From contig CAZSUX010000002.1 in the NCBI GenBank assembly GCA_964610135.1, forward strand, positions 1 through 31,902: a DNA stretch of 31,902 nucleotides, in the 5' to 3' direction. A program made the translations under genes and the position numbers. Under the pieces are notes generated by a model. The model saw only the letters and a list, made by a program, of their open reading frames with translations. It was not told the origin of the DNA and searched no databases. Shown here piece by piece: positions 9,895-29,749 of this stretch. Numbering within the stretch: position 1 is the first letter of the stretch; each line of letters opens with the position of its first letter. This DNA comes from an uncultured bacterium. GTDB lineage: Bacteria > Hydrothermota > Tepidihabitantia > Tepidihabitantales > Tepidihabitantaceae.

Positions 9895-9923
9895 TTGACA
9901 GTATGTCCCAGCGGGTCTAAGAT
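9895..9923 (+). promoter_or_regulatory. Promoter of the hdr-flx-mvh operon
   Basis: TTGACA(9895-9900)-N17-TAAGAT(9918-9923)-N12-ATG(9936); back-to-back with the pilT promoter. Confidence 0.7.
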
Positions 9924-9935
9924 ACTAGTCCACCA

Positions 9936-10331
9936 ATGGCGACAGCCTATTCGTCGGCTGAACTGCTTGAGCAGGTTGAGGCGCTGAGCGGCCAGGCCGT
10001 CAGCGACTGCTATCAGTGCGGCTGCTGTACATCGGGTTGTCCGATCGGTGAGGCGATGGATCCGCCGCCCAGCAAGGGAATCAGGCTGCTGCAGTTGGGC
10101 AGGGCCGAAGAGTTGCTCGGTTCTGACGGAATATGGATGTGCGCGAGTTGCCTTGTCTGCGGGACACGCTGCCCCAGGGGGGTCGACTACGCCCGAATCG
10201 CTGAGGCCTGCCGCGCGTTGATTCTCCGGTCCAAGCAGAGCAGGGTAGACCCCGATACTGTTACTGCCCCGGAACTTGATGAGATTCCGCAACAGGCGTT
10301 TATCGCGGCCTTCCGCAAGTCATCGGTATGA
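9936..10331 (+). CDS. hdrC: Heterodisulfide reductase subunit C
   Basis: CYQCGCCTSGCP and WMCASCLVCGTRCP; stop overlaps the hdrB start (ATGA). Confidence 0.9.
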   Translation: MATAYSSAELLEQVEALSGQAVSDCYQCGCCTSGCPIGEAMDPPPSKGIRLLQLGRAEELLGSDGIWMCASCLVCGTRCPRGVDYARIAEACRALILRSKQSRVDPDTVTAPELDEIPQQAFIAAFRKSSV

Positions 10332-11188
10332 CCAAATACACCTACTACCCAGGCTGCACGCTCTACACCAAGGCACGGAGTCTGGACCTGTGTGCGCGCA
10401 GGGCAGCCGAGAAGGTTGGGTTCGAACTGGTCGAGATGCCGTCATGGAACTGCTGCGGGGCCATATACAACGCCACCAGCGATGACCTCGCGGCCCAGGT
10501 TGGGTCGGTGCGCAATCTGGCCAAGGCCAGCCAGTTGGGTGACAAGCTGGTCACCCTGTGCGCCGCATGCCACAACGTGCTCAAGCGGGTGCAGAACCGG
10601 CTGGACCAGCCGGGCAACGAGGTCGAAAGCGAGCGTCTGAAGACATTCGTTGACGAGAAATTCGAGCAGCCGGTCAAGGTGCTGCACTACCTCGAAGTCC
10701 TGAAGAACGACATTGGCTGGGACAAGGTCAAAGAGAAGGTCACGAAGCCGCTGGTCAAACTCAAGGTTGCGTCCTACTACGGGTGCCTGATGGTCAGGCC
10801 CAGCGAAGTGCTGGAATTCGACGACCCGGAGAATCCCCAGGTGATGGATGACCTGATACGCATTCTCGGGGCGGCGCCCACCAAGTTCGACTTCAAGGCC
10901 GAATGCTGCGGAGGGTATCTGGTCGTGAACCGTCGTGATGTGGCCAAGTCCGCGTCGCAGAGGATCCTGGACAATGCCAAGGCCTGGGGCGCGGAGGCGG
11001 TCGTTACGACCTGCCCGTTGTGCCAGTACAACCTGGACAAGTTGCGGGTGATGACCGGAGGTTCTCTGCCCGTGTTCTACTTCACGCAATTGCTCGGCAT
11101 CGCGGTCGGACTTACGCAGGACGAGCTCGGGCTGGAGCACAATGCCGGCGACCCGGTCGGATTCCTGAAAGCGAAGGGCCTGCTGTGA
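10328..11188 (+). CDS. hdrB: Heterodisulfide reductase subunit B
   Basis: Two CCG domains: YYPGC...NCCG...CAAC and YYGC...ECCGG...TTCPLCQYNL. Confidence 0.93.
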   Translation: MTKYTYYPGCTLYTKARSLDLCARRAAEKVGFELVEMPSWNCCGAIYNATSDDLAAQVGSVRNLAKASQLGDKLVTLCAACHNVLKRVQNRLDQPGNEVESERLKTFVDEKFEQPVKVLHYLEVLKNDIGWDKVKEKVTKPLVKLKVASYYGCLMVRPSEVLEFDDPENPQVMDDLIRILGAAPTKFDFKAECCGGYLVVNRRDVAKSASQRILDNAKAWGAEAVVTTCPLCQYNLDKLRVMTGGSLPVFYFTQLLGIAVGLTQDELGLEHNAGDPVGFLKAKGLL

Positions 11189-13209
11189 CGCAAGACGCAT
11201 CACGCCCCACGCCTGATGCCGGAATCCCGCACGCTGACGTGCCTGGCGTCGAGCCTCGTGCGTCGAGCGTGAGGCGTGTTGGCGTTTTCGTCTGCCACTG
11301 CGGTATCAACATCGCCGGAACGGTCAAGATTCCCGAGGTGCTGGAGAGGGTCGGGGCGATGCAGGGCGTGGCGGTGACCAAGGACTACAAGTACTGCTGT
11401 TCGGATCCGGGCCAGCAGATGATCCGGGACTCAATCAAGACTGACAAGCTGGACCGGGTCATCGTTGCCTGCTGTTCGCCGACGCTGCACGAGACGACGT
11501 TCCGCAACGCCTGCGGCGAGGCGGGGCTGAATCCCTACCTCTGCGAGATTGCCAATATCCGCGAGCAGTGTGCCTGGGTGACCGAAGACAAGGACAAGGC
11601 GACCGACAAGGCGACCGAGATCATCCGGACCACAAAGGCCAAGGTTGAGAACGACCTCCCGCTTGAAGCCATCACCGTGCCAATCAACAAGCGCGCGCTG
11701 GTAGTCGGGGCAGGGATTGCCGGCATCCAGGCCGCGCTGGACATCGCCAACGCCGGGTACGAGGTCGTGCTGGTGGAGAAAGAGCCCTCCATCGGCGGAC
11801 ACATGGCCCAGCTTTCCGAGACTTTCCCTACTCTGGACTGCTCCCAGTGCATCTTGACCCCGCGGACGGTCGAGACGGGCCGGCATCCGAAGATAAAGCT
11901 GATGACCTATTCCGAAATCGACAGCGTCTCCGGTTATGTCGGCAACTTCAAGGTGAAGGTCAGACAGAAGGCGCGCTACGTCGACTTCAAGACCTGCACA
12001 GGCTGCGGCGCGTGTCTCGAGAAGTGCCCGGGTAGAACCGAGTCACGGTTCGAGCGCGGGCTGACCAAAGGCAAGGCGATCTACCGGTTGCTGCCGCAGG
12101 CCGTGCCTAACCGGCCCGTGATTGACGCCAAGGCTTGCGTATACCTGACCAAGGGCAAGTGCGGCATCTGCGCCAAGGTCTGTCCGACCGGCGCCATCCG
12201 CTACGACGACACCGACAAGTTCGTCGAGGAAGAGGTCGGCGCAATCGTGCTGGCGACCGGGTATGAGTTGTTCGACGCGACCAAGCTCGGGTCGTACGGC
12301 TTCGGGCTTGTCCCGGACGTGATTGATGGTCTCGCCTTCGAGCGGCTGCTCTCTGCTTCCGGGCCCACGTCGGGCGAGGTCAAGCGACCCTCAGACGGCA
12401 AGACGCCGAAGAAGATTGTGTTCGTGCAGTGCGCAGGCTCTCGCGACTCGACCGCCGGGATGCCATACTGCTCGAAGATCTGCTGCATGTATACGGCCAA
12501 GCAGGCGATACTCTACCGGCATCGGGTTCACGACGGGCAGGCGACAATCTGCTACATTGATGTGCGGACCCCGGGCAAGGGGTTCGAGGAGTTCTACAAG
12601 CGCGCAACCGACGACGGTATCCAGTATCTGCGCGGCAAGGTCTCCAAGATATTCCGGCAGGGCGACAAGGTTGTGGTCTGGGCCGCGGACACGCTGGCCG
12701 GCCGCAAGGTAGAACTCGAAGCGGACATGGTTGTGCTCGCCACGGCAGTCATCGCCAACCCGGACGGCGTGGCCTTGGCGCGCAAGCTGAAGACCCAGAT
12801 CGACACGCACGGTTTCATGACCGAGGCGCACCCGAAGCTCAGGCCGGTCGAGACCCTGACCGCTGGGTTCTTCCTGGCCGGTTGCGGCCAGGGGCCCAAG
12901 GACATCCCGGAAACCGTGGCGCAGGCATCGGCAGCGGCCGCCAAGGTCCTGGCAATGTTCGGGAACACGCGCCTTACCCACTCGCCGACGACAGCTCAGG
13001 TTGACGAGGAGATCTGCGTGGGCTGCGGCTACTGCGAGCGGACGTGCGCCTACGAAGCGGTGAAGGTCGACCCGGCGAAGAAGAAGGCGGTCGTGAACGC
13101 GGCCCTCTGCGAAGGGTGCGGAGCGTGCGCGGTTGCCTGTCCGTCGGGTGCGATGACGCACAAGAACGCCACCAAGAAGTCGATATTCGAGATGGCGGAT
13201 TCGTTCTAG
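11185..13209 (+). CDS. hdrA: Heterodisulfide reductase subunit A, canonical type, with a repeat-derived N-terminal extension
   Basis: GVFVCHCG, ACCSP, NIREQCAWV, FAD motif GAGIAG, DCSQCILTP, inserted ferredoxin, QCAGSRD..YCSKICCMY, C-terminal 2x[4Fe-4S]. GTG 11185 overlaps the hdrB stop. Confidence 0.93.
   Translation: MTQDASRPTPDAGIPHADVPGVEPRASSVRRVGVFVCHCGINIAGTVKIPEVLERVGAMQGVAVTKDYKYCCSDPGQQMIRDSIKTDKLDRVIVACCSPTLHETTFRNACGEAGLNPYLCEIANIREQCAWVTEDKDKATDKATEIIRTTKAKVENDLPLEAITVPINKRALVVGAGIAGIQAALDIANAGYEVVLVEKEPSIGGHMAQLSETFPTLDCSQCILTPRTVETGRHPKIKLMTYSEIDSVSGYVGNFKVKVRQKARYVDFKTCTGCGACLEKCPGRTESRFERGLTKGKAIYRLLPQAVPNRPVIDAKACVYLTKGKCGICAKVCPTGAIRYDDTDKFVEEEVGAIVLATGYELFDATKLGSYGFGLVPDVIDGLAFERLLSASGPTSGEVKRPSDGKTPKKIVFVQCAGSRDSTAGMPYCSKICCMYTAKQAILYRHRVHDGQATICYIDVRTPGKGFEEFYKRATDDGIQYLRGKVSKIFRQGDKVVVWAADTLAGRKVELEADMVVLATAVIANPDGVALARKLKTQIDTHGFMTEAHPKLRPVETLTAGFFLAGCGQGPKDIPETVAQASAAAAKVLAMFGNTRLTHSPTTAQVDEEICVGCGYCERTCAYEAVKVDPAKKKAVVNAALCEGCGACAVACPSGAMTHKNATKKSIFEMADSF
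11187..11278. repeat. Inverted pair of heptamer arrays (5+5 units)
   Basis: GACGCAA GACGCAT CACGCCC CACGCCT GATGCCG (11187-11221), 22-nt spacer, TGGCGTC GAGCCTC GTGCGTC GAGCGTG AGGCGTG (11244-11278). AGGCGTG is the reverse complement of CACGCCT. Confidence 0.75.
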
Positions 13210-13215
13210 GGCACG

Positions 13216-16200
13216 ATGACCAGTGACCAGGTACCAGTGACCAGCCCCGAGCCGGCGAACGGGCCAGTCGGTGCAGTGCTGGTAGTGGGCTCGGGAATCG
13301 GCGGCATCCAGGCGGCGCTGGAACTGGGCGATGCCGGGTTCAAGGTCTACCTGCTCGACGAGGGGCCGGCCATCGGCGGCGTGATGGCGATGCTCGACAA
13401 GACCTTCCCGACCAACGACTGCTCGATGTGCATCCTGTCGCCGAAACTGGTCGGCACCGGCAGGCACCAGAACATCGAGCTCGTCAACTACAGCGAGCTC
13501 TTGAGCCTTGATGGCGAGCCCGGGCGGTTCAAGGCGAAGATTCGCCGGAAGCCGCGGTTCGTCCTCCTCGACAAGTGCACGGGTTGTATGGACTGCACCA
13601 AGGTCTGTCCGGTCGAGGTGCCGGACGAGTACAACCAGAAGCTGGCGATGCGCCGGGCGACCTATAAGCTCTACCCGCAGGCGATTCCCAATGCGGTAGC
13701 TATCGAGAAGAACGAAGGCAAGGCCCCGTGTCGGCTGGCCTGCCCATCCGGCGTCAACGCGCAGGGATACGTTGCGCTCATCTCGCAACGGAAGTTCAAG
13801 GAAGCCTACGAACTGGTGCGCGAGCGGTTGCCGTTCCCTGGCATCTGCGGTCGCGTCTGCCACCACCCGTGCGAGCAGGAGTGCAACCGCAAGGAGTACG
13901 AATCACCCGTTTCCATCCGGACCCTGAAGCGGTTCGCCGCCGACTACGTGTATTCCAACAAGATCGAATACCCCGTCATCAAAGCACCGGCAGCGGAACG
14001 CTCGGAGCAGGTCGCAGTAGTCGGGGCCGGCCCGGCCGGGCTTACCTGTGCGCTCGACCTGCGCGCCAAAGGCTACAAGGTGACCGTGTTTGATGCCACG
14101 GACAAGCCGGGCGGGATGATGCGCTGGGGCATTCCGGCGTACCGCCTGCCGCGCGAGACCCTTGACCGGGAAATCAAGGACATCACCGATACCGGCGTCG
14201 ATCTGAAGCTCAAGAGCCCGGTCAACGGGACCGCGGGCGTTCAGAACCTGCTCGGACAGGGGTTTTCTGCAGCGTTCGTCGCCCTCGGCTGCTCCAAGAG
14301 CCGGACCCTGAAGATTGACGGGATGGATCTTGATGGCGTGTTGCACGGCATCGAGTTCCTGCGCGACGTCAACGCCGGCAAGAAGCCGGCGGTCGGCAAG
14401 CGAGTCGTTGTCATCGGCGGCGGCAACGTCGCGGTTGACGTGGCGCTGTGCGCCCGACGGCTCGGCGCCGAGGACGTGACGATGACGTGCCTGGAGTGCC
14501 GCGAGGAAATGCCGGCCCACGAGTGGGAAATCTCCGACGCGACGGCCGAGGGTGTGAAGCTGAACCCCTCGTGGGGACCGCAGGCGGTTGCTGGTGAGAA
14601 CGGCAAGGTGACCGGACTCCGGACAATCGAGTGCACGCGGGTCTTCGATGACGCGCACAAGTTCAACCCGCAGTTCGGCTGCGTCGAGGGGTTTGTTCCT
14701 GCCGACACCGTTATCCTTGCCATCGGCCAGGCGGTGGATGCCGACGGGTTTGACGGGTTCGAGCGCGGACCGGGCGGTACGTTCAAGGTCAATCCGCTGA
14801 CATTTGAGACCACTCTGCCCGGTGTCTTCGCCGGCGGCGATATGGTTTCGGGACCGGCGTCGGTGATTGAGGCCGTGAATGCCGGCCACGAGGCCGCGAT
14901 TTCGATTGATCGGTTCATCAACCGGCAGGATCTGGCCGAAGGACGCGCGAAGCCGAAGGAACAGGCGGCCAAGGCCGAAGAGTCGGCAGCGGCCAGAGCG
15001 AAGATCGAGCGGCGCGAGCGTGCCGAGGAAGTTTCGTTGCCGGCAAGTGAGCGCGTCGCAGACTTCCGTGAAGTAGCGCAGGGTTTCACCGAAGAGCAGG
15101 CAGTCGCTGAGGCACAGCGCTGCCTGAACTGCGGCATCTGCTGCGAGTGCCTCCAGTGCGTCACCGCCTGCGAGGCGAAGGCAATCGACCACACGCAGAC
15201 CGCGTCCGAGGAGGAACTCGAAGTCGGTGCGGTCGTTCTTTCCGCCGGGTTCAAGGAGTACAAACCGACGGGTGAATACGGCTACGGTTACGGCCGGTAC
15301 CCGAACGTGGTGACCAGCCTCGAGTTTGAGCGCATACTCTCCGCCTCCGGGCCGTACGAAGGCCACGTGAAGCGGCCGAGCGACCTGACGCAGCCGAAGA
15401 AAGTCGCTTGGATTCAGTGTGTCGGTTCGCGCAACGCCGAGCACTACTATTGTTCGTCGGTCTGCTGCATGTACGCGACCAAGGAAGCGGTCATCGCCCG
15501 CGAGCACTGCGGCGGCAACCTCGACTGCCACGTCTACTACATGGACATGCGTTGCTTCGGCAAGGACTTTGAGAAGTATTACGACCGGGCGAAGGATGAG
15601 TACGGCGTCCAGTTCCGGCGATGCAAGGTGAGCGCGGTGCAGAGGAAGGGACAAAGGACGAGGGACGAAGGACAAAGCCCGGACGGGACCGACGAGGACC
15701 TTCTGATATCGTACGAGGATGAGGCGGGGACACTGCGCGAGGAGGAGTACGACATGGTCGTGGTCTCGACCGCGCTCGCGGCCAATCCGCGTGCGGTTGA
15801 GATGGCAAAGCGCATTGGCGTAGCCACCGACGACCAAGGGTTCGTGAAAACCGACCGGTTCGAACCGGTGCTGACCGACCGGCCCGGCGTCTACGCCTGC
15901 GGCGCGCTGGCTGAGCCGAAGGACATTCCCGAGACCGTGACCGAGGCGACCGGCGCGGCCGGCGCAGTAGCGGTTCTGCTCGCCCCGGCTCGCAACACGC
16001 TGGTCCGGCCCAAGGTGTACCCGCCGTTCCGTGACGTGTCGGGTGAGGAGCCGCGCATTGGCGTGTTTATCTGCAACTGCGGCATCAACATCGGCGGCGT
16101 GGTGAAGGTGCCGAGCGTGGTGGAGTACGCCCGCACGCTGCCGAACGTGGTTTTTGTCGACGAGAACCTTTTTACCTGCTCTCAGGACACGCAGCAGAAG

Positions 16201-17793: not shown

Positions 17794-18208
17794 TTACGAA
17801 CCTAAGATTGTTGGATTTCTCTGCAACTGGTGCACTTATGCGGGGGCGGACCTCGCCGGCACGTCACGTATGCAGTACCCGCCGAATATGCGACCGATAC
17901 GGGTGATGTGCTCGGGTGCAGTCGACTCGGTGTACGTCCTGCGCGCCCTGCTCGAGGGCGCGGACGGTGTGTTTATTGGTGGCTGTCACCCCGGCGACTG
18001 CCACTACGTCTCGGGCAACTACAAGGCGCGGCGCCGGATGGTGCTGTTCAACTCGGTGATGCAGTCGCTCGGCCTCGAGTCCGACCGCGTCTGGCTGCGC
18101 TGGATTTCCGCGGCCGAGGGCCGGAAGTTCGCCGATACGGTTACCGAGATGACCGTCCACCTCCGCGAGAAGGGGCCGAGTGCCTTCAAAGAGAAGTGGG
18201 AAGTGTGA
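17786..18208 (+). CDS. mvhD: MvhD/FlxD-family [2Fe-2S] adaptor subunit
   Basis: FLCNWCTYAGAD, RVMCSG, GCHPGDCHY, WISAAEG. Confidence 0.92.
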   Translation: MANYEPKIVGFLCNWCTYAGADLAGTSRMQYPPNMRPIRVMCSGAVDSVYVLRALLEGADGVFIGGCHPGDCHYVSGNYKARRRMVLFNSVMQSLGLESDRVWLRWISAAEGRKFADTVTEMTVHLREKGPSAFKEKWEV

Positions 18209-18215
18209 GGGAGCG

Positions 18216-19334: not shown

Positions 19335-19336
19335 GG

Positions 19337-20137: not shown

Positions 20138-20146
20138 AGCAAGCAC

Positions 20147-20548: not shown

Positions 20549-20553
20549 CGGTT

Positions 20554-20588
20554 TTGCGTCTTGGCTTTTGGCCTTTGGCTTTTAACTT
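20554..20588. repeat. Right (inverted) heptamer array of the four-helix-bundle cassette
   Basis: TTGCGTC TTGGCTT TTGGCCT TTGGCTT TTAACTT; TTGGCTT is the exact reverse complement of AAGCCAA. Confidence 0.9.
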
Positions 20589-20605
20589 GACTCCGGAGTT
20601 CCATC

Positions 20606-23600
20606 ATGCCTGAGCCTTCGACTGGCAAGATCGGTGCTGTATTGGTTGTCGGCGGAGGAATCGGTGGCGTGCAGTCTGCGCTCGACCTGGCCGATTCCGG
20701 CTACAAGGTCTATCTGGTTGACCGTGCACCAGCCATCGGCGGCATCATGGCGATGCTCGACAAGACCTTCCCGACCAACGACTGCTCCATGTGCATCCTC
20801 TCACCCAAGCTGGTCGCTGCCGGACGGCACAAGGACATCGAACTGATGACCCTGACCGAGGTGCTGGGAGTCGAGGGAGAGCCGGGCAACTTCAAGGTTC
20901 GGCTCAAGCGCCATGCCCGCTCAGTCGACCTGTCGAAATGCACCGGCTGCGGCGACTGCTTGACCAAGTGTCCGGTCAAAGACCTGCCGAACGAGTTTGA
21001 GGGCGGACTTTCGAATCGCCGCGCCATCTACCGTCTCTACGCGCAGGCAGTGCCGAACGCGCCGATGATTGACCGCGAGCATTGCCTGAAGTTCACCAAG
21101 GACAAGTGCGGTGCCTGCCAGAAGACGTGCAAGGCCGGCGCCATCGACTACGCTCAGCAGGATGAGGAGTTCACGGTCGAGGTCGGCTCAGTCGTGGTCG
21201 CCGCCGGCTCGAAGATAGCGCCGACCGCACTCCGGCCCGAGTACGGCCACGGCCGATACCCCAACGTCGTGTCCAGCCTCCAGTTCGAGCGGATCCTGTC
21301 TGCGTCCGGGCCATACGGCGGTCACGTCAAACGTCCGTCCGACGGCAAGGCGCCGAAGAAGGTCGCGTGGCTGCAGTGCGTCGGGTCGCGTGACGACTCA
21401 GTCGAGCGCGGTTATTGCTCGGCGATGTGCTGCATGTACGCAGTCAAAGAGGCGGTCATTACGAAGGAACACTCGAGCAATGTCGAGCCGACCGTCTTCT
21501 ACATGGACATGCGTTCGTACGGCAAGGACTTCGACAAGTACGTCGACCGGGCCGAGCAGCAGTATGGAGTCCGTCTGGTCCGCGCTCGCGTCCCGGAAAT
21601 CCGCGAGGACCCGGGTACGCACAACCTCACACTCCGCTACGCCTCGGACGGAGGCAGCTTTGCCGAGGAGTTTGAAATGGTCGTGCTCTCCTGCGGCTTC
21701 GTGCCGCCGCCCGAACTCGTGGACCTGGGCAAACGGCTCGACTTCGAGCTGGACAGATACGGGTTCGCCGCCACCGACGATTGGGCGCCCGCTCGGACGA
21801 GCCGCCCCGGCGTCAGTGTGGCCGGCAGTTTTGCCCAGCCGATGGCTATCCCGGAGACTGTGACCGGCGCGTCGGGAGCGGCCGCTGCGGCCGAGGAGAT
21901 TCTCGCGGCTGAGCGCGGCCGTTTGGTCGCAGTCAAGGAGATGGCGGCTGAGACCGACGTGCGCGGGGAGGCGCCGAGGATAGGCGTGTTCGTCTGCCAC
22001 TGCGGCATCAACATCGGCGGAGTCGTGCGCGTCCCGGAAGTCGTCGAGTTCGCCCGGACCCTGCCTCACGTGGCCTATGCCGAGGAGAACCTGTACTCAT
22101 GCTCGGGCGACACCCAGGACAAGATCAGGGACCGGATCCGCGAGCACCGGCTCAACCGGGTAGTGGTTGCTTCCTGCTCGCCTCGGACTCACGAGCCGCT
22201 GTTCCAGGCCACGGTCGCCGAGGCGGGTCTGAACCCGCACCTGTTCGCGATGACCAACATCCGCGACCAGTGCTCGTGGGTGCACATGAAGGAGCCGGAC
22301 AAGGCGACTGAGAAGTCCAAGGACCTGGTGAAGATGGCGGTCGCACGGGCCATGCGCCTGAAGGCGCTGCCCAAGGTCAAACTGCCCGTGACCAGAGCTG
22401 GATTGGTCGTCGGTGGCGGCATCGCCGGCATGACGGCGGCTCTGTCTTTGGCCGGAGAGGGATTCGATGCATTCCTGGTCGAGCAGGACAAAGAACTCGG
22501 CGGGAATGCCCGCAGCATCGCCCGTACCGTCGAGGGCGACGACGTGCAGAAGCGTTTGAAGGAACTGGCGGACAAGGTCACCAGCCATCCTCGCATCAAG
22601 ACGTTCCTCAATGCGCGCATCAAGGCGATAGACGGCTTTGTCGGCAACTACCAGACCACGCTTGAGGGTGAGGGCACCGTCCTGAAGCACGGAGTCGTGG
22701 TGGTGGCGACGGGCGCGCAATACCGCACACCGACCGAGTACTGCTACGGCCAGAGTTCTCGCATCGTGAGCCAGAAGGAACTGGAAGAGATGATCGAGGG
22801 GTCCAAGGGTCCACGGGTTGGCCTCAGCGGCCTCCGTCAGACGGCGCAGGGGGCCAGGCCTTCGGAGTCACCCGAACCCCGGAACCCCCGAACCCTGGAA
22901 CCCACCTCGCTTCGCTCGGTGGTCATGATCCAGTGCGTTGGGTCGCGCGAGGCTGACCGGCCCTACTGCTCGCGCATCTGCTGCACCGAAGCAGTGAAGA
23001 ACGCGCTGGCAATCAAGGAACTGAACCCCGAGACCGACGTCTGCGTCCTCTATCGCGACATCCGTACCTACGGCATGCGTGAGGAGTACTATCGGCAGGC
23101 GCGCGAGAAAGGTGTCGTCTTCATTCGCTTTGCGCCGGAGACCAAGCCCGATGTACGGGTCGTCGACGGCCGGCCGATTGTCACTGTCAACGACCCGATA
23201 CTGGGCCGGGAAATCGAACTTCAGCCGGATATCCTCGCGCTGTCGTCCGGAATCGTGCCGCAGTCCGGCTCCGAGGGACTGGCCCAGATGCTCAAGGTAC
23301 CGTTGAACAGCGATGGGTTTTTCCTCGAGGCCCATATGAAGCTGCGGCCGGTGGATTTCGCCACCGACGGTGTGTTCATGGCCGGGCTGTGCCACTTCCC
23401 CAAGTTCATCGACGAGGCTACTGCCCAGGCCCAGGCTGCTGCCAGCCGGGCCGCCACGATACTGTCCCGCGACACGCTCGATGCGGAAGCAACGGTAGCC
23501 AACGTGGACCCGGCCAAGTGCTCGGCCTGTCACATGTGCGAAGGGCTCTGTGCCTACCATGCCATCGAAGTGAAGGTCGTGAACGAACGCACCGGCAAGC

Positions 23601-23734
23601 AGGCCGCGGTCGTCAACGAAGCGATGTGCAAAGGCTGCGGCGCCTGCGCCGCCAACTGCCGCTCGCTGGCCATCGATATCCGCGGCTTCCAGTCCGATAA
23701 CATCAGCCGCGAAATCGCGGCGCTGCTGGACTAA
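20606..23734 (+). CDS. hdrA: HdrA-like protein with two FAD modules (no GltD insert)
   Basis: GGGIGG, DKTFPTNDCSMC, ferredoxin insert, YCSAMCCMY, internal GVFVCHCG, GGGIAG, YCSRICC, C-terminal CSACHMC/CKGCGAC; paralogous to 13216-17793. Confidence 0.92.
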   Translation: MPEPSTGKIGAVLVVGGGIGGVQSALDLADSGYKVYLVDRAPAIGGIMAMLDKTFPTNDCSMCILSPKLVAAGRHKDIELMTLTEVLGVEGEPGNFKVRLKRHARSVDLSKCTGCGDCLTKCPVKDLPNEFEGGLSNRRAIYRLYAQAVPNAPMIDREHCLKFTKDKCGACQKTCKAGAIDYAQQDEEFTVEVGSVVVAAGSKIAPTALRPEYGHGRYPNVVSSLQFERILSASGPYGGHVKRPSDGKAPKKVAWLQCVGSRDDSVERGYCSAMCCMYAVKEAVITKEHSSNVEPTVFYMDMRSYGKDFDKYVDRAEQQYGVRLVRARVPEIREDPGTHNLTLRYASDGGSFAEEFEMVVLSCGFVPPPELVDLGKRLDFELDRYGFAATDDWAPARTSRPGVSVAGSFAQPMAIPETVTGASGAAAAAEEILAAERGRLVAVKEMAAETDVRGEAPRIGVFVCHCGINIGGVVRVPEVVEFARTLPHVAYAEENLYSCSGDTQDKIRDRIREHRLNRVVVASCSPRTHEPLFQATVAEAGLNPHLFAMTNIRDQCSWVHMKEPDKATEKSKDLVKMAVARAMRLKALPKVKLPVTRAGLVVGGGIAGMTAALSLAGEGFDAFLVEQDKELGGNARSIARTVEGDDVQKRLKELADKVTSHPRIKTFLNARIKAIDGFVGNYQTTLEGEGTVLKHGVVVVATGAQYRTPTEYCYGQSSRIVSQKELEEMIEGSKGPRVGLSGLRQTAQGARPSESPEPRNPRTLEPTSLRSVVMIQCVGSREADRPYCSRICCTEAVKNALAIKELNPETDVCVLYRDIRTYGMREEYYRQAREKGVVFIRFAPETKPDVRVVDGRPIVTVNDPILGREIELQPDILALSSGIVPQSGSEGLAQMLKVPLNSDGFFLEAHMKLRPVDFATDGVFMAGLCHFPKFIDEATAQAQAAASRAATILSRDTLDAEATVANVDPAKCSACHMCEGLCAYHAIEVKVVNERTGKQAAVVNEAMCKGCGACAANCRSLAIDIRGFQSDNISREIAALLD
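22794..22902. repeat. Inverted pair of octamer arrays in frame in the third hdrA
   Basis: TCGAGGGG TCCAAGGG TCCACGGG (22794-22817), 53-nt spacer, CCCGAACC CCGGAACC CCCGAACC CTGGAACC (22871-22902). Confidence 0.8.
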
Positions 23735-23752
23735 ACGATGGGAGAATCGCAC

Positions 23753-24211
23753 ATGCCGGAAACTGCTGCGGCCGAGAAGGCAGTCGGCGGCGAATTCGAA
23801 CCCAAGATCGTGGCTTTTCTCTGCAACTGGTGTTCGTATGCCGGCGCCGACCTTGCCGGCATATCGCGCATCCAGTACCCGCCCAGCATCCGGGTCATTC
23901 GCGTTCCGTGCTCCGGTCGGGTTGACCCCTTCTATATCCTCAAGGCGCTGCAGAACGGCGCGGATGGCGTGCTCATCTCCGGCTGCCATCCCGGCGACTG
24001 CCACTACCTGACCGGAAACTATGTCGCCCGGCGCCGGTTCGCAGTCCTCAACGACCTGCTGGAGTTCGCCGGCATCGACCAGGGCCGGGTTAGCTTCTCC
24101 TGGGTTTCTGCTGCCGAAGGTGAACGGTTCGCGGAGGTCGTGCGCGACGTCACCGAGAAGGTCCGCCAACTCGGGCCGAACAAGAAGCTGCTGAGGGAGC
24201 CAATCGCGTGA
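23753..24211 (+). CDS. flxD: MvhD-like subunit of the Flx module
   Basis: FLCNWCSYAGAD, RVPCSG, GCHPGDCHY; first in the flxD-C-B-A order. SD GGAG 8 nt before ATG 23753 (alternative start 23738). Confidence 0.88.
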   Translation: MPETAAAEKAVGGEFEPKIVAFLCNWCSYAGADLAGISRIQYPPSIRVIRVPCSGRVDPFYILKALQNGADGVLISGCHPGDCHYLTGNYVARRRFAVLNDLLEFAGIDQGRVSFSWVSAAEGERFAEVVRDVTEKVRQLGPNKKLLREPIA

Positions 24212-25047
24212 GCCGCGAAGACCAACTCCGCAAGCGGGCCACGGAGTTGCTGGCGGGCAAGGAAGTCGTGATGGTTCTCGGCTATCGTGCGGGCAAGCGT
24301 CCCGGCACGGCCACACCCGCATTCGTCACCCGGCCGGAAGACGTCGATACGCTCATCTTCGACGACCGCTGCGGCCCCAACCTCGCCGCCTACCTTCCGC
24401 GCGTCAAGCACCGGGGCAAGATTGCCATCGTTGCCAAAGGCTGTGATTCGCGCTCAATCGTCTCCCTGCTCAAGGAGAAACAGGTTGACCGCGGGCAACT
24501 AGTGATTCTCGGAGTCGGCTGTGAAGGCGTGAAAGAGAACGGCCGCCTCAGCGATTCCTGCACGACCTGCGCTCACCCGAACCCGGTAATCTGCGACGAG
24601 ATGATAGGGGAGAAGGTGGCCGAGCGCGAGCCCGCTCCCAACCCGCTGGCCGACTTTGAGAAGCTCTCGCCGGACCAGCGCTGGCAGGCATTGATGGACG
24701 ACGTCTCGCGCTGCATCCGCTGCTATGCCTGCCGCCAGGTCTGCCCGAACTGCTATTGCCCTACCTGCTTTGTCGACGCCAACAGCCCGCAGTGGGTCGG
24801 CAAGACCACAGCCGGTTCGGACAACATGATGTTCCATCTGATGCGGGCGATGCACATGGCCGGTCGCTGCGTGGAGTGCGGTTCCTGCAGTCGCGGGTGC
24901 CCGATGGGTATCGACCTGATGAAGTTCAACCGTAAGGTGGCACATGTCGTGAAGGAGCGGTTCGGCGCTGTCGCGGGGTTGAATCCCGACGAACCACCGG
25001 CGCTTGCTGCCTTCGACCCGAACGACAAACAGGAGTTCATACGCTGA
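24208..25047 (+). CDS. flxC: 4Fe-4S dicluster protein FlxC
   Basis: KGCDSRS, CIRCYACRQVCPNCYCPTCF, FHLMRAMHMAGRCVECGSCSRGCP; gene order. Confidence 0.82.
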   Translation: MSREDQLRKRATELLAGKEVVMVLGYRAGKRPGTATPAFVTRPEDVDTLIFDDRCGPNLAAYLPRVKHRGKIAIVAKGCDSRSIVSLLKEKQVDRGQLVILGVGCEGVKENGRLSDSCTTCAHPNPVICDEMIGEKVAEREPAPNPLADFEKLSPDQRWQALMDDVSRCIRCYACRQVCPNCYCPTCFVDANSPQWVGKTTAGSDNMMFHLMRAMHMAGRCVECGSCSRGCPMGIDLMKFNRKVAHVVKERFGAVAGLNPDEPPALAAFDPNDKQEFIR

Positions 25048-25048
25048 C

Positions 25049-25116
25049 CATTGTAGATTGCGGATTGCAGATGGCAGATGGCAGAGTTCGGCGGCCGGCG
25101 TCTGGCGTTTGGAGCT
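25049..25116. repeat. Heptamer arrays filling the flxC-flxB intergenic gap
   Basis: CATTGTA GATTGCG GATTGCA GATGGCA GATGGCA (25049-25083), then CGGCGTC TGGCGTT TGGAGCT (25096-25116), which are only weakly complementary to the first array. Confidence 0.7.
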
Positions 25117-25120
25117 ACCC

Positions 25121-26140
25121 ATGACCCAACGCATCGTGACCGCCGCCGACCTCGACAGACTCGTGGCCGGCTGGACCAAGAGTGCCGTGGTCTACGCCCC
25201 GGTCAAGGTCAAAGACTGGACCGAGTTCCGCCGGGTTTCGTCATTGGCCGAAGCCGACTTCACCCAGGTGAACACCAAACTTTCCGCCCGGGGTCTTCTG
25301 TTCCCGCAGTGCGAGACCATGTTCCGGTTTGAGACAAGCCGGCCGGACAAGGCGGAGGAAGCCGACCAGCCTGAGGCGCAGGTCATCCTTGGCGTCCGTC
25401 CCTGCGACGCCGCGGGTATCGCCGTGCTCGACAAGTTCTTTGCCGGCCAGGGTGAGACCGATACCTTCTACCGGCGACGCCGTGAGAAGACGACGCTGGT
25501 TGGCCTAGCCTGCTCCGCTCCGGCCGACACCTGCTTCTGCTCTGCGGTCGGCGGCTCGCCGGCCGGAACGCGCGGGCTCGACCTCCTGCTCACCGACCTT
25601 GGCGGCCGTTACCTGGCCGAGCCGCTTACCGACAACGGCGAGGCGGCAGTGAAGGACTTGCCTGAGGCCGCTTCTGCCGACCTCGCGAAGAAGAAGGAAA
25701 TCGCTGACAAAGCCGCCGCTGCCATGGCCCAGCGCATCGATACCGGCAAGCTCAAGCAGTTGCTTGACTCGGCCGACAGCCATCCGGTGTGGGAAGACCT
25801 CAGTCTCGCCTGCGTCAATTGCGGTGCCTGCACCTTCGTCTGTCCCACCTGCCACTGCTTCGACATCACGGACGAGACGCGCAAAGGCAAAGGCGCCCGC
25901 CTTCGTGTCTGGGACACCTGCCAGTTCTGTCTCTACTCGCAGCACGCCTCCGGCCATAACCCGCGCCAGACCCATGTCTCTCGTTTCCGCAACCGGGCGA
26001 TGGACAAGTTCAAGTACACTGTCGATATGATTGGCGAAGTCTCGTGCGTCGGCTGCGGACGATGCGTTCGCGAGTGCCCGGAATCTATCGACATTCGCGA
26101 GACAGTCGAGACACTGATGACCGTGCTGCCGGAGAAATAG
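25121..26140 (+). CDS. flxB: AsrA/sulfhydrogenase-beta-like 4Fe-4S protein FlxB
   Basis: GVRPCDAAG, CFC...GGSP, CVNCGACTFVCPTCHCF, RVWDTC, CVGCGRCVRECP. Start ATG 25121. Confidence 0.85.
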   Translation: MTQRIVTAADLDRLVAGWTKSAVVYAPVKVKDWTEFRRVSSLAEADFTQVNTKLSARGLLFPQCETMFRFETSRPDKAEEADQPEAQVILGVRPCDAAGIAVLDKFFAGQGETDTFYRRRREKTTLVGLACSAPADTCFCSAVGGSPAGTRGLDLLLTDLGGRYLAEPLTDNGEAAVKDLPEAASADLAKKKEIADKAAAAMAQRIDTGKLKQLLDSADSHPVWEDLSLACVNCGACTFVCPTCHCFDITDETRKGKGARLRVWDTCQFCLYSQHASGHNPRQTHVSRFRNRAMDKFKYTVDMIGEVSCVGCGRCVRECPESIDIRETVETLMTVLPEK

Positions 26141-26983
26141 ATGGCGCGAAATCCATACGAGCCGATTTCAGTCAGAGTTGAGAAGGTCACCGTCGAGAAC
26201 GAGGCAAAGGACCTCAAGACCTTCGACCTTGCATTCACTGATCCCGAAGCGCGCAAGGCGTTCGACTTCACTCCCGGCCAGTTCGGGTTCCTCTCAATGA
26301 TGGGCGTTGGCGAGGCGCCGTTCGGCATCGCCTCGGCCCCATCCGAGGAACTGGTCAAGTACACGGTCAAGCGTGTCGGCAGCTTTACGACTTCGCTCCA
26401 CGAACTTGAGCCGGGCGCGGCCATCGGTATGCGCGGCCCCTGGGGTAACTCCTACCCGTTCGACCGGATGAAGGGGAAGGACATCGTCATCGTCTCCGGC
26501 GGCTTCTCGTTCACGACGCTGCGCTCGACCATTGTCTACCTCCTCGACCCAGCCCGCCGGTCCCAGTTCGGCAAGGTCACCGTGGTCTACGGTGCCCGTT
26601 CAGCGGGTGAGTTGCTCTACAAGGACGAGATCAAAGCGTGGGAGCTGAGTCCGGACCTTGCCCTGCATCTCTGCGTGGACCGGCTCGCCGGCGCATCCTG
26701 GCCCAAGACCGAAGGCCTTGTTCCGAACGTGCTCCAGCAGGTCGCGCCGTCGGCTGCGAATGCGGTTGCGCTCGTCTGCGGCCCGCCCGTCATGATTCGC
26801 TTCACCCATCCGGTTCTGGAGAAGCTCGGGTTCAAGCCTGAAGACGTTTTCCTTTCGCTTGAGAATCGAATGAAGTGCGGCATCGGCAAGTGCGGCCACT
26901 GCAACATCGGTCCCAAGTACGTCTGCAAAGACGGACCGGTTTTCAGCTACCAGGAGCTGCTCCGACTCCCGCCGGAGTACTAG
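26141..26983 (+). CDS. flxA: FAD/NAD(P)-binding oxidoreductase FlxA (AsrB / hydrogenase-gamma-like)
   Basis: FTPGQF, GEAPFGIAS, RGPWGN, SGGFS, YGARS, VCGPPVM, MKCGIGKCGHC...VCKDGPVF ([2Fe-2S]). Confidence 0.88.
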   Translation: MARNPYEPISVRVEKVTVENEAKDLKTFDLAFTDPEARKAFDFTPGQFGFLSMMGVGEAPFGIASAPSEELVKYTVKRVGSFTTSLHELEPGAAIGMRGPWGNSYPFDRMKGKDIVIVSGGFSFTTLRSTIVYLLDPARRSQFGKVTVVYGARSAGELLYKDEIKAWELSPDLALHLCVDRLAGASWPKTEGLVPNVLQQVAPSAANAVALVCGPPVMIRFTHPVLEKLGFKPEDVFLSLENRMKCGIGKCGHCNIGPKYVCKDGPVFSYQELLRLPPEY

Positions 26984-26993
26984 CCCTCCTGCG

Positions 26994-27245
26994 ATGTTGA
27001 CCGGCGCGCACTGGACAACCGCAAGGCTCGGTGATTGTCATCCCGGTGACTGTTGCTACAAGCGCATCGAGGTGCTTCGGGCGCTGATGAAGCAGCTCGG
27101 GGTCGAGGAGGCCCGGCTGCGCCTCGAGTGGATTCCGGTGGCCGAGGGCGTGGAGTTCGCCCGGGTCGTGCGCGACTACACCGAAGAGATACGGAAGCTG
27201 GGCCCGCTCGAGCTGAGGCGGGTCGCGATCGAGGACGAGACCTAG
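26994..27245 (+). pseudogene. mvhD: Truncated, degenerate mvhD relic
   Basis: Only the C-terminal half remains: DCHPGDCCYKRIEVL...RLRLEWIPVAEGVEFA. The FxCNWC and RVxCSG ligand segments are absent, and about 8 codons (GNYKAR region) are missing relative to the two intact paralogs. Confidence 0.75.
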
Positions 27246-27261
27246 GACGCATGGAGGTAAT

Positions 27262-28239
27262 GTGGCCGAGAAGCTGAAGTTCGGATTCTACTGGGCCGCC
27301 TCCTGCGGCGGCTGCGAAATCGCGGTGCTCGACACCAACGAGAAGATCCTCGACGTGGTGGCGGGCGCCGACATCCTGTTCTGGCCGGTGGCGATGGACA
27401 CCAAGTACGACGACGTCCGGGCGATGCCGGACGGGCACATGGACGTTTGCTTCTTCAACGGGTCGATCCGGAACTCTGAAGCGAAGGAGATCGCGCACCT
27501 GCTGCGCAGGAAGTCGAAGGTGCTCGTGGCGTTCGGCTCCTGCGCCCACCACGGGTGCATCCCGGGTCTCGCCAACCTGCACAATCGGGAAGAGGTGTTC
27601 GCCACCGTCTACCACAATGAGCCGGCGCTCGACGACTCGGCCGGGACCGAGCCGCAGACGAAGTTCCAGGCGCCGGAGGGTGAACTCACGCTGCCGAAGT
27701 TCTTCAACCACGTCTACCCGCTCGACCAGGTGGTCGACGTCGACTACTACCTGCCGGGCTGCCCGCCGCCGGTGCCGCTCATCCTCAACGCGGTGACCGC
27801 CATCTTCAAGGGCGAGCTGCCGCCCAAGGGCACGGTGCTCGCCCCGGTCAAGGCGCTGTGCGACGACTGCGTGCGCAACAAGCACGAGGCGAAGAAGATG
27901 CCGGACGTGAAGCGGACCTGGGAAATCAAGGCCGACCCGGAGAAGTGCTTCCTCGAGCAGGGCATCATTTGCATGGGCCCGGTGACGCGCTCGGGCTGCG
28001 AGACGCGGTGCATCAACGGCAATTCGCCGTGCACCGGGTGCATGGGTCCTACGCCCGAGGTTACGGACCAGGGCGCCAAGATGATATCGGCGCTCGGCTC
28101 GATCCTGGCGGTCGATGGCGAGAAGGAACTGGGTGACGAGGCGACGCAGGAACTGATGGCCAAGATCAAAGACCCGGTCGGTACCTTCTACATGTACGGC
28201 CTGGCGAGCGCAATCATCAAACACAAGCGAGGCAAGTAA
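27262..28239 (+). CDS. mvhG: [NiFe]-hydrogenase small subunit, group 3c
   Basis: ASCGGCE, GSCAHHGCIPGL, YLPGCPP, CDDC, CFLEQGIICMGPVTRSGC...C...PCTGCMG. Confidence 0.92.
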   Translation: MAEKLKFGFYWAASCGGCEIAVLDTNEKILDVVAGADILFWPVAMDTKYDDVRAMPDGHMDVCFFNGSIRNSEAKEIAHLLRRKSKVLVAFGSCAHHGCIPGLANLHNREEVFATVYHNEPALDDSAGTEPQTKFQAPEGELTLPKFFNHVYPLDQVVDVDYYLPGCPPPVPLILNAVTAIFKGELPPKGTVLAPVKALCDDCVRNKHEAKKMPDVKRTWEIKADPEKCFLEQGIICMGPVTRSGCETRCINGNSPCTGCMGPTPEVTDQGAKMISALGSILAVDGEKELGDEATQELMAKIKDPVGTFYMYGLASAIIKHKRGK

Positions 28240-29702
28240 TGGCGAACCGCATCACGATTGACCCGATCACGCGCCTCGAAGGCCACGGCAAGATCGAGAT
28301 ATTCCTCAACGACAAAGGCGAGGTCGAAAACGCCTACCTGCAGGTCCCGGAGCTGCGCGGGTTCGAGCAGTTTTGCGTCGGGCGCAAGGCAGAGGACATG
28401 CCTCAGCTTACGAGCCGGATCTGCGGGGTGTGCCCGGTCGCGCACCACTTCGCCGCAACCAAGGCGCTCGACGCGGCGTTCGGGGTCGAACCAACCGAGA
28501 CTGCGCGCAAGCTTCGCGAGTTGTTATACCACGGCTACATCATCTACGACCACATCCTGCACTTCTACTTCCTGGGCGGCCCGGACTTCGTGGTGGGGCC
28601 GGACGCGCCCAAGGAGAAGCGCAACATCCTCGGCGTCATTGAGAAGGTCGGGCTCGACATCGCGAAAGAAGTCATCAAGCACCGGGCCTACGGCCAGAAG
28701 ATCTCCGAGATCCTCGGCGGCAAGCCGACCCACCCCGTGTCCGGGATTCCCGGCGGCCAGACCAAGGGGCTGAACGAAGAGGAGCGCAAGAGCATCGAGG
28801 AGATGGCGACTTCGTGCGTCGGCTTCGCCGAGTTTTCGCTCAAGCTGTTCGCCGACGTCGTGCTCAAGAACGAGGCCTACATGGGCCTCGTGACGAACCC
28901 GAACCTCGGGCTCGACACCTACAACATGGGGCTGGTCGACGCGAACAACCGCGTGAACTTCTACGACGGCAACGTCCGGGTGACCGGCCAGGACGACAAG
29001 GAGTTCGTCAAGTTTGCGCAGCACGAGTACCTCGACCACATCCGCGAGCACGTACTCGAGTGGTCCTACGTCAAGGTCCCGTACCTCAAGGCGGTCGGCT
29101 ACAAGGGCCTCGTCGACGGCAAGGACTCGGGCATCTACCGGGTCGGCCCGCTCGGGCGCCTCAACGCGGCCGAGGGCATGGCGACGCCGAAGGCGAACGA
29201 GCACTACCAGCAGATGTTCGATACCTTCAAGACCCGGCCGGTGAACGCGACGCTCGCGTTCCACTGGGCGCGGCTGATCGAACTGCTCTACGCCAGCGAG
29301 TACGCGCTCGAACTGTCCAAGGACCCGCAGATCACCGACCCGGACATCCGGAACATGGACTACAACATGCAGGAAGAGGGCATCGGCATCGTCGAGGCGG
29401 CGCGGGGTACGCTTATCCACCACTACTGGGTGGACGAAGAGCGGCTGATGAAGAAGGTGAACCTGATCGTCGCGACGACCAACAACATGGGGCCGATCTG
29501 CATGTCGGTCCGGAACGCGGCGAAGGAGCTTATCCACGACGGCAAGGCGGACGACGGATTGCTGAACACGGTCGAGATGTTCTTCCGGGCCTATGACCCG
29601 TGCTTCGCCTGCGCGAGCCATGTGGTGGGACAGGTGCCGCTCGAGGTGAACATCCGCAACGCGGACGGCTCGCTGCACGAGCGGCTGTCGAACCACGGCT
29701 AG
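28239..29702 (+). CDS. mvhA: [NiFe]-hydrogenase large subunit, group 3c (Cys form, with a cleavable C-terminal tail)
   Basis: TRLEGH, L1 RICGVCPVAH, L2 RAYDPCFACASH followed by a C-terminal extension. Confidence 0.93.
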   Translation: MANRITIDPITRLEGHGKIEIFLNDKGEVENAYLQVPELRGFEQFCVGRKAEDMPQLTSRICGVCPVAHHFAATKALDAAFGVEPTETARKLRELLYHGYIIYDHILHFYFLGGPDFVVGPDAPKEKRNILGVIEKVGLDIAKEVIKHRAYGQKISEILGGKPTHPVSGIPGGQTKGLNEEERKSIEEMATSCVGFAEFSLKLFADVVLKNEAYMGLVTNPNLGLDTYNMGLVDANNRVNFYDGNVRVTGQDDKEFVKFAQHEYLDHIREHVLEWSYVKVPYLKAVGYKGLVDGKDSGIYRVGPLGRLNAAEGMATPKANEHYQQMFDTFKTRPVNATLAFHWARLIELLYASEYALELSKDPQITDPDIRNMDYNMQEEGIGIVEAARGTLIHHYWVDEERLMKKVNLIVATTNNMGPICMSVRNAAKELIHDGKADDGLLNTVEMFFRAYDPCFACASHVVGQVPLEVNIRNADGSLHERLSNHG

Positions 29703-29749
29703 CCCGCCGCCAAGGTAATCCTGCTCGACTAGCAGTACCTCAGACTCTT

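Follow-up and report, generated by a model that had tools for sequence, protein, structure and literature searches.

Hdr-type electron bifurcation is a main route to low-potential ferredoxin in strict anaerobes. The HdrL protein was defined in Desulfobacterium autotrophicum (PMC2702500), and in Syntrophobacter fumaroxidans an HdrABC/HdrL-MvhD-FeS unit (Sfum_0819-0824) was co-detected as proteins during sulfate reduction; the proteins of an Hdr/Flox unit are also known from this species (PMC5947623). For the HdrABC/HdrL unit, NAD(P)H has been proposed to donate or accept the electrons (PMC5947623, PMC2702500). Types I (canonical), II (two thioredoxin-reductase domains) and III (GltD insertion) of HdrA, together with mixed clusters, have been catalogued for archaea, and a second bifurcation by co-clustered type I HdrA has been proposed (PMC12054007). 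A cryo-electron microscopy (cryo-EM) preprint describes BamE, part of class II benzoyl-CoA reductase, as a fused HdrA dimer in which only the N-terminal flavin adenine dinucleotide (FAD), beside Cys59-Cys62, bifurcates and the second FAD is structural (10.64898/2026.04.10.717634). A 2025 survey of candidate division WOR-3 lists 34 metagenome-assembled genomes with mvhADG and hdrABC and says no more on them (PMC12542636). Here we analyze a 31,902-nucleotide (nt) stretch of DNA from an uncultured bacterium (GCA_964610135.1, contig CAZSUX010000002.1, hereafter the window; G+C = 63%), in which 16 consecutive open reading frames (ORFs) on the + strand, at 9936-29702, bring together hdr, flx and mvh genes.

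We propose, with a probability of roughly 0.6, that this string is one operon of a WOR-3-like anaerobe, for a modular soluble Hdr-type bifurcating/confurcating system, predicted to join an NAD(P)H-linked ferredoxin/disulfide core to add-on electron donors. The closest homologues of its hdrA2 gene (70-95% identity) carry the label candidate division WOR-3. ORF identities were assigned by Pfam and NCBIfam profile scans and by PDB sequence searches. An earlier note, made from the letters and ORF translations of the window, had described one transcription unit with three HdrA types, three electron-input modules and a single HdrBC output.

Three HdrA architectures and a single HdrBC

The string opens with hdrC (9936-10331, 131 amino acids (aa), two 4Fe-4S motifs; Pfam Fer4_8/Fer4_17 and an HdrC/QmoC-like NCBIfam match) and hdrB (10328-11188, 286 aa; Pfam CCG twice, TIGR03288 at 5e-49), whose two CCG domains hold all ten cysteines (10, 42, 43, 78, 81 and 153, 185, 186, 230, 233). 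The hdrB stop overlaps the start of a type I hdrA (11185-13209, 674 aa) in the sequence GTGA. Profiles and alignment to HdrA of Methanothermococcus thermolithotrophicus (5ODC_A) give this HdrA the full four-domain set of a soluble HdrABC (N-terminal Fe-S, FAD, inserted ferredoxin and C-terminal ferredoxin domains), aligned over residues 2-647 with all cysteine motifs, E356 and K409 kept; HdrB and HdrC show the corresponding two CCG motifs and two 4Fe-4S clusters. Scores for HdrA, HdrB and HdrC lie below the NCBIfam equivalog cut-offs of the methanogen enzymes (for example 790 vs 1100 and 167 vs 345), and CoM-S-S-CoB is not expected as the substrate because the host is not a methanogen. As the earlier note had it, HdrBC is single: a tblastn search of the window with hdrB returned only the self-match.

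The second architecture is hdrL (13216-17793, 1525 aa), identified by profiles, PDB matches and alignment as a fused HdrA dimer with a GltD/NfnB-like FAD and NAD(P)H module. This module (about aa 166-650) interrupts the inserted ferredoxin domain of the N-half between its two cluster motifs; it matches PRK12771 at 2e-166 over aa 166-673 as well as NfnB-type PDB entries, and HdrA matches lie on both flanks. HdrA-type domains and a GltD-like module thus stand in one chain with mvhD next, the arrangement by which HdrL is defined, and mvhD-1 overlaps the hdrL stop codon. The second dinucleotide motif of HdrL reads GGGNVA (GxGxxA, aa 401-406), which by the rule of PMC12054007 suggests NADPH rather than NADH as the nucleotide; the earlier note had named NADH.

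The third is hdrA2 (20606-23734, 1042 aa), a type II or fused-dimer HdrA according to profiles, the 5ODC_A alignment and an AlphaFold2 model (predicted local distance difference test 79.7, predicted template modeling (TM) score 0.82). Its N-half carries FAD and inserted ferredoxin domains and its C-half N-terminal Fe-S, FAD and C-terminal ferredoxin domains, the domain set of that type. The best fold match of the model is HdrA 5odh_A (E = 4e-52, TM 0.75 on the target), and an exact look-up of the hdrA2 product found no identical entry.

We aligned the five thioredoxin-reductase-type modules of these proteins to 5ODC_A, with the reference sequence taken from a printed alignment, and the three HdrA types of the earlier note were borne out. 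The GxGxxG FAD motif, the four HA4 cysteines and the equivalents of E356 and K409 are kept in all five modules. Three of the five (HdrA, HdrL N-half and HdrA2 N-half) also have the C194/C197 pair (TNDCSxC) and the inserted ferredoxin domain; both C-halves have the K409/E356 equivalents and lack the pair and the inserted ferredoxin domain. N-terminal Fe-S and C-terminal ferredoxin domains occur only in HdrA and in the two C-halves. Because the accessory domains are split between N- and C-halves in this way, HdrL and HdrA2 are fused pseudo-dimers with each accessory domain present once. By the yardstick of BamE there would be three candidate bifurcating flavins, not five: the five HdrA-type FAD modules counted earlier exist, and full bifurcation capacity for each of them does not follow, as only three keep both the CxxC pair and the inserted ferredoxin domain.

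Putative connectors, the Flx cassette and proposed electron flow

Three genes for putative connectors lie between hdrL and hdrA2. The first, mvhD-1 (17786-18208, 140 aa), encodes a full-length [2Fe-2S] adaptor (Pfam FlpD, 6e-53, profile positions 1-121 of 123). The second, here called X (18216-19334, 372 aa from its ATG; mechanical ORF start 18180), encodes an FdhB/FlxC-like Fe-S protein whose start was refined against relatives including L001; its best PDB matches are FdhB chains of solved Fdh-Hdr complexes (9t1s_M at 4e-32, 8rvu_E, 7bkb_E), and it is 26% identical to FlxC. The third, Y (19337-20137, 266 aa), encodes a tandem HdrC-like protein with two HdrC repeats and without a CCG domain (TIGR03290 at 7e-36 in two stretches, and PDB HdrC chains).

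Downstream of hdrA2 lies a Flx cassette of mvhD-2/flxD (23738-24211, 157 aa, full-length; Pfam FlpD, 4e-56), flxC (24208-25047, 279 aa; an FdhB-like Fe-S protein by profile scans), flxB (25121-26140, 339 aa from an ATG set by comparison with L001; AsrA/sulfhydrogenase-beta-like, Fer4_22, NF040833 at 2e-57) and flxA (26141-26983, 280 aa; FAD/NAD(P)H-binding and 2Fe-2S, AsrB/sulfhydrogenase-gamma-like, NAD_binding_1, DHODB_Fe-S_bind, NF006220 at 2e-67). The order hdrA2-mvhD2-flxC-flxB-flxA is that of Flx loci and recurs in L001, L083, L014, L016, L017, L044 and L063. The 73-nt spacer between flxC and flxB (25048-25120) contains GCAGATG-type repeats (GCAGATGGCAGATGGCAGAG), at a junction where the two genes of L001 overlap by 4 nt, and may be the footprint of a lost inserted element. 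The GC skew is slightly negative (-0.03 to -0.07) over mvhD-2/flxCBA (23000-27000) and +0.02 to +0.11 over the rest of the operon. The Flx cassette may differ from its surroundings in its history.

Substrate sites in the core are confined to the CCG domains of HdrB, the NAD(P)H site in the GltD/NfnB-like module of HdrL, and the inserted ferredoxin domains that HdrA and HdrA2 carry. Taken alone, the core would be an oxidoreductase acting on NAD(P)H, ferredoxin and a disulfide (or another high-potential acceptor), and its overall chemistry would be the one proposed for FlxABCD-HdrABC. The entry point of NADPH would be HdrL; MvhD, X and Y would be Fe-S wires joining the HdrA-type modules; HdrBC, present once, would form the high-potential outlet, at the non-cubane-cluster CCG domains; and ferredoxin would react at the inserted ferredoxin domains of HdrA and HdrA2. 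The C-halves of HdrL and HdrA2 are probably structural and electron-relaying, like the second FAD of BamE. The Flx add-on would pass electrons from NAD(P)H to FlxA (FAD) and on through FlxB, FlxC and MvhD-2 to HdrA2. The hydrogenase add-on at the 3′ end would take electrons from H2 through MvhA to MvhG and, because its own MvhD is truncated, would have to borrow an intact MvhD copy or be poorly coupled. A bolder version of this scheme seems doubtful to us, namely that the core is a multi-flavin cascade bifurcase in which three HdrA-type FADs and the NfnB/GltD-like FAD are wired via MvhD, X and Y, each bifurcation output feeding the next, with HdrBC as common sink and the Flx, NuoEFG-like (see below) and Mvh cassettes exchangeable at the 3′ end.

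Profile scans of the window found neither dsrC nor tusA, in line with the earlier statement that dsrC is absent from it. The sole sulfur-trafficking candidate in the window is a tandem-rhodanese (sulfurtransferase-like) gene 7 kb upstream on the - strand (1618-2688), with no evident linkage to the Hdr operon.

The core is inherited and the 3′ end varies

We compared the locus with close relatives taken individually and with a contig scan of genomes, which, among the matches listed, returned distant relatives only (45-53% identity) and no WOR-3. The eight-gene core hdrC-hdrB-hdrA(type I)-hdrL-mvhD-X-Y-hdrA2 is kept in at least seven distinct relatives. In L001 (hdrA2 89% identical) it reads hdrCBA-hdrL-mvhD-X-Y-hdrA2-flxDCBA with unrelated genes after, and L083/L084 (90%) have the same order with a gene of the IVP family, treated below, at the same place as in the window and a second one between flxB and flxA. 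The core stops after hdrA2 in L085 (81%), L086 (79%) and L111, and is followed by mvhD only in L108/L109. In the complete WOR-3 genome CP070680 (L002, 70%) the order is hdrC-hdrA-hdrL-mvhD-X-Y-hdrA2, then hdrCB, an hdrA split around NuoE/F/G-like genes, and mvhDGA. Further loci are L005 (hdrA2 about 50%; hdrA-hdrL-mvhD-X-Y-hdrA2) and L098/L099 (about 52%; hdrL-mvhD-X-Y-hdrA2-mvhD-mvhG-mvhA). Across at least 80 distant loci among the matches listed, mvhD comes next after hdrA2 in nearly every case; beyond it flxCBA or mvhGA is common, as is hdrCB ahead of hdrA2.

At the Flx position of L002 (14468-19409), an HdrA N-part shares a chain with a NuoE-like 2Fe-2S domain; next come a NuoF-like protein and a NuoG-like N-terminus fused to an HdrA C-part. 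By its domains this is a predicted Hdr/HydABC-type hybrid, with mvhDGA next to it.

The ratios of nonsynonymous to synonymous substitution rates (dN/dS) against L001, L083 and L002 are 0.03-0.28 for 14 of the 14 intact redox genes, indicating purifying selection. Because the core is kept across relatives while the 3′ end varies, we regard the three HdrA types in a row as a recurrent inherited unit, and Flx and Mvh as accessory, lineage-specific 3′ modules, on the evidence of gene order and sequence conservation. The synteny is also consistent with the earlier suggestion that some HdrA paralogues work without an HdrB of their own. The exact 16-ORF string, in which flxDCBA is followed by a truncated mvhD and mvhGA, occurs only in the window among the loci compared. 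The string described in the earlier note joins units that were known before from genomes and proteomes, and it is the unit of eight redox genes alone that is conserved.

The constant neighborhood of hdrA, hdrL and hdrA2, which in relatives that have the core only is accompanied by one MvhD, one X and one Y, could instead mean that all products form one mega-complex, in which two or three HdrA-type bifurcating flavins work in series and the high-potential output of one module passes via Y, X and MvhD to the C-terminal ferredoxin domain of the next, as in class II benzoyl-CoA reductase. We consider such cascade bifurcation unlikely. In its favor, Y is a duplicated HdrC for which no partner HdrB exists, X has as its homologue the FdhB subunit docking to MvhD in the solved structures of Fdh-Hdr complexes, and precedents exist in coupled modules of class II benzoyl-CoA reductase (10.64898/2026.04.10.717634) and in the second bifurcation proposed for co-clustered type I HdrA (PMC12054007). 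The argument is one of gene adjacency alone, however, and the Hdr paralogues of sulfate reducers are regulated and detected independently (PMC5947623).

A hydrogenase next to a truncated adaptor

The 3′ end carries mvhG (27262-28239, 325 aa), a [NiFe]-hydrogenase small subunit (Oxidored_q6), and mvhA (28239-29702, 487 aa), a group-3c-type large subunit with the Ni-Fe ligand motifs RICGVC and DPCFACASH intact, as group 3c requires. In the PDB, MvhA matches 7t2r_D (9e-112) slightly ahead of the methanogen MvhA 5odc_F (2e-103); we take 7t2r to be the electron-bifurcating NiFe-HydABCSL of Acetomicrobium mobile. MvhA also bears a C-terminal extension that needs cleavage, and the window contains no hyp or endopeptidase gene.

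Between flxA and mvhG lies an 83-aa mvhD relic (26994-27245) that matches FlpD profile positions 58-123 only and has no obvious Shine-Dalgarno sequence. Compared with the full-length mvhD of L105, it lacks about 63 N-terminal residues, including three conserved cysteines (the CxxC...C half), and eight internal residues. A cognate full-length MvhD of the kind found in group 3c MvhADG is therefore missing here, and two other intact mvhD genes are present in the operon. We rejected the idea that the relic is a duplicate of mvhD-1 or mvhD-2, as its identity is 68% with the C-terminal portion of the L105 mvhD and 45-48% with those two copies. In L105 the genes run hdrA-mvhD-mvhG, and the MvhG encoded there shares 89% identity with that of the window; we conclude from these alignments that the relic derives, as far as sequence can tell, from the mvhD that precedes mvhG in relatives (L105, L002). 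Its frame is open for 83 codons with a dN/dS of 0.30 vs 0.13 for mvhG, and it may be dead or may survive as a C-terminal piece for docking. Two independent salt-marsh runs yielded contigs that cross the flxA/relic and relic/mvhG junctions with no mismatches, by which an assembly artefact or chimera was rejected.

Against L002 (19868-22427), the synonymous divergence (dS) is 0.70 for mvhG and 0.55 for mvhA, and 0.9-1.7, roughly double, for the core genes. This hints at a more recent shared ancestry of the hydrogenase genes with L002, possibly by recombination or transfer between lineages; codon bias is an alternative cause of the low values. The hydrogenase looks like a comparatively recent attachment that has lost its own adaptor, and because of that loss the wiring of the H2 input is the least secure part of our proposal. 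The three electron-input modules claimed earlier are thus there in content, with the H2 branch insecurely wired owing to its truncated cognate MvhD.

With flxB-flxA-(relic)-mvhG-mvhA, the genes stand in an order like the beta-gamma-delta-alpha one of group 3b (hydBGDA), and after loss of MvhD they might form a group-3b-like NAD(P)-coupled (sulf)hydrogenase independent of HdrA. FlxB and FlxA do score best against sulfhydrogenase beta and gamma (2e-57 and 1.5e-56), and the intervening mvhD is degenerate. We nevertheless find this very unlikely: MvhG and MvhA are clearly of the 3c type (VhuG 6e-63 vs HydD 1e-23; VhuA 1e-123 vs sulfhydrogenase 3e-57), so that the subunits do not belong to group 3b, flxDCBA occurs without a hydrogenase in L001, L083 and many Desulfobacterota, and the junction is unique to the window's lineage.

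A second alternative is confurcation without a disulfide, in which NAD(P)H (through Flx or HdrL) and reduced ferredoxin would deliver electrons at HdrA2/HdrL to form H2 at MvhAG during fermentation, and HdrBC would serve the type I HdrA only. Neither HdrA2 nor HdrL comes with its own HdrBC; other phyla commonly have hdrA2-mvhD-mvhGA and no hdrBC (L022, L045, L047, L080 and L081, among the matches listed); and the closest solved large subunit to MvhA is the 7t2r_D named above. WOR-3 are also described as H2-metabolizing anaerobes (PMC12542636). The closest relatives (L001, L083, L085, L086, L108, L111), however, have no mvhGA beside the core, the window has its cognate MvhD in truncated form, and the 5′ hdrCB is retained under strong purifying selection. 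We rate confurcation of this kind as rather unlikely, and continue to favor the modular system with HdrBC as its high-potential outlet.

An IVP-family element between Y and hdrA2

One of the 16 ORFs is not an hdr, flx or mvh gene. The gene at 20147-20548 (+ strand) encodes a four-helix-bundle protein that passes the cut-offs of PF05635 (52.7 vs 33.8 bits) and TIGR02436 (68.3 vs 24 bits), and together with two inverted-repeat arms it makes up an element at 20147-20588. The arms (20157-20192 and 20553-20588, 36 nt each) form an imperfect inverted repeat built of GCCAAAAG-type units and pair with each other in the predicted RNA fold, both in the minimum free energy (MFE) and in the centroid structure. 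Profile match and enclosing inverted repeat are those of the 23S rRNA IVP family; the site is an intergenic one in an mRNA and not in 23S rRNA. By its family the gene is unrelated to Hdr and is no component of the system. The earlier count of 15 intact ORFs thus contains one unrelated IVP gene; the 16 same-strand ORFs, the promoter, the terminator and the tight spacing hold.

Y and hdrA2 touch, with no IVP gene between them, in L001, L085 and L086, and on the strength of this adjacency we rejected a chimeric assembly at the repeated element. The copy at the Y/hdrA2 junction is orthologous in L083, L108 and L111, with dN/dS of 0.08-0.15 (purifying selection). The operons of relatives carry further copies at other places, with other arm sequences and the same stem-around-ORF architecture. 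All told, the element was noted in relatives in L083 (9539-9983 and 15463-15905), L085 (14455-14930 and 7709-7725), L108 (10056-10615) and L111 (5985-6561). Across copies the inverted repeats measure 36-45 nt and consist of short tandem units, the sites are intergenic positions of the operon, and the right arm is duplicated in L108 and L111. In RNA contigs the element is transcribed and is the best-covered and least divergent part, less divergent than the flanking Y. By analogy with intervening sequences of rRNA, a role in mRNA processing is one possibility. Our literature search on the IVP or four-helix-bundle mobile element returned no match.

Transcription signals

With starts refined against relatives, intergenic gaps in the string range from -8 to +16 nt, except for 57 nt between the IVP gene and hdrA2 and 73 nt between flxC and flxB. 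A sigma-70-like promoter (TTGACA-17-TAAGAT, + strand, 9895-9923), found by motif search, ends 12 nt upstream of the hdrC ATG and is the sole + strand sigma-70-like site in 8500-20700; overall, the counts of promoter-like sites are at chance level. For RNA evidence we used Logan contigs from lake-water runs, which represent related populations, and did not take depth as a measure of expression. Metatranscriptome contigs from at least four runs (X15, X22, X26, X28) start at 9940-9957 and none covers 9850-9939. Because of these starts and of the position of the -10 box 12 nt before the hdrC ATG, the operon mRNA may be leaderless or nearly so, beginning just before this ATG; no Shine-Dalgarno sequence precedes hdrC.

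At the other end, 48 nt past mvhA, an intrinsic-terminator-like hairpin (29750-29777, + strand) with 12 G-C pairs and a loop of four is followed by TGCTTTCT; it is the best terminator-like site (fold z-score -4.06). Consensus searches of 9936-29702 revealed no convincing internal sigma-70 promoter, sigma-54 site or terminator, the features which the earlier note had named as able to split the unit. The sigma-54 consensus matched at chance level and not once in the intergenic gaps, and an Rfam scan of the window found no element. RNA contigs bridge the hdrC/hdrB and Y/IVP junctions and also lie on hdrL, mvhD-1/X, Y, the IVP gene and hdrA2. A single transcription unit with one promoter (9895-9923) and one terminator (29750-29777) is likely, though the RNA contigs are sparse and, at 95% identity or more, none falls on flx/mvh.

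The transcript might instead be divided, giving one mRNA for the core and one or two for the accessory modules, by the IVP stem or by weak promoters in the 57- and 73-nt gaps; by analogy with rRNA intervening sequences, the stem is a likely RNase III substrate. The long inverted repeat encloses the IVP gene in both predicted folds, RNA contigs are deeper on the element and end near it (left ends at 20126-20130, right ends at 20514-20591), none bridges from IVP to hdrA2, and the accessory modules are evolutionarily separable. On the other side, there is no internal consensus promoter or terminator, an RNA contig does bridge Y and IVP, and contig ends in low-depth assemblies are unreliable. We rate a split transcript as rather unlikely and retain the single unit.

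Several observations nonetheless weigh against one operon for a modular bifurcating system. The RNA evidence is sparse, comes from related lake populations and may include DNA carry-over; no RNA contig of at least 95% identity falls on flx/mvh (23857-29849), modules that the lake populations may not carry. The 57- and 73-nt gaps and the IVP stem could hold processing sites or weak promoters. In the C-halves of HdrL and HdrA2 the equivalents of K409 and E356 are retained, unlike in BamE with its Gln768, and the flavins there might still be active. Finally, the GltD module of HdrL sits on the branch that normally reduces ferredoxin, which makes the direction of electron flow ambiguous.

Comparison with known systems

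At present the system is a genomic prediction from an uncultured lineage, assembled from catalogued parts. The locus and its relatives form a natural comparison series, in which the same core with three HdrA architectures either lacks an additional donor or has Flx, NuoEFG-like or Mvh modules. The series could guide expression and cryo-EM work on whether HdrL and the fused-dimer HdrA are self-sufficient NAD(P)H-driven bifurcases, on whether several HdrA modules share one HdrBC, and on what purpose the FdhB-like and tandem-HdrC connectors have. In the literature searched we found no description of the eight-gene core or of the combined string, and a search on Flx with DsrC returned no match.

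The HdrL units of S. fumaroxidans and D. autotrophicum, like the window, place hdrABC beside an HdrA-GltD fusion, MvhD and an FdhB-like Fe-S protein. Relative to these, the unit described here always has Y and a second, fused-dimer HdrA in addition, the host is WOR-3-like, and no dsr genes are seen in the window. Hdr/Flox of Desulfovibrio vulgaris and other anaerobes likewise has FlxA/B/C and an MvhD-like FlxD adjoining hdrA, an order (hdrA-flxDCBA) also seen in many Desulfobacterota loci among the matches listed; in the window, however, the adjoining HdrA is a fused dimer of 1042 aa, the hdrBC genes are located 10 kb upstream and would serve two other HdrA types as well, and mvhGA is appended.

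Methanogen MvhADG-HdrABC (5ODC) shares with the window the 3c-type subunits, the MvhD adaptor and the HdrA domain set, and differs in that the window has a truncated cognate mvhD, a non-methanogen host and scores that do not reach the equivalog cut-offs. BamE and archaeal type II HdrA resemble HdrA2 in having two thioredoxin-reductase domains, the CxxC pair and inserted ferredoxin domain in the N-unit only, and an MvhD-like adaptor next. Compared with BamE, for which we used the text of the preprint, HdrA2 has a lysine (K409) in its C-half where BamE has Gln768, and has no BamBC/BamGHI partners. Type III HdrA of ANME-1 and Bathyarchaeota is like HdrL in carrying GltD at the inserted ferredoxin domain, with a pyridine nucleotide predicted in place of ferredoxin (PMC12054007); HdrL is a fused dimer with GGGNVA, whereas the archaeal proteins are single HdrA units with GXGXXG. 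Every sub-unit has thus been described before; what is new about the locus is how known parts are arranged, and it does not amount to a new system.

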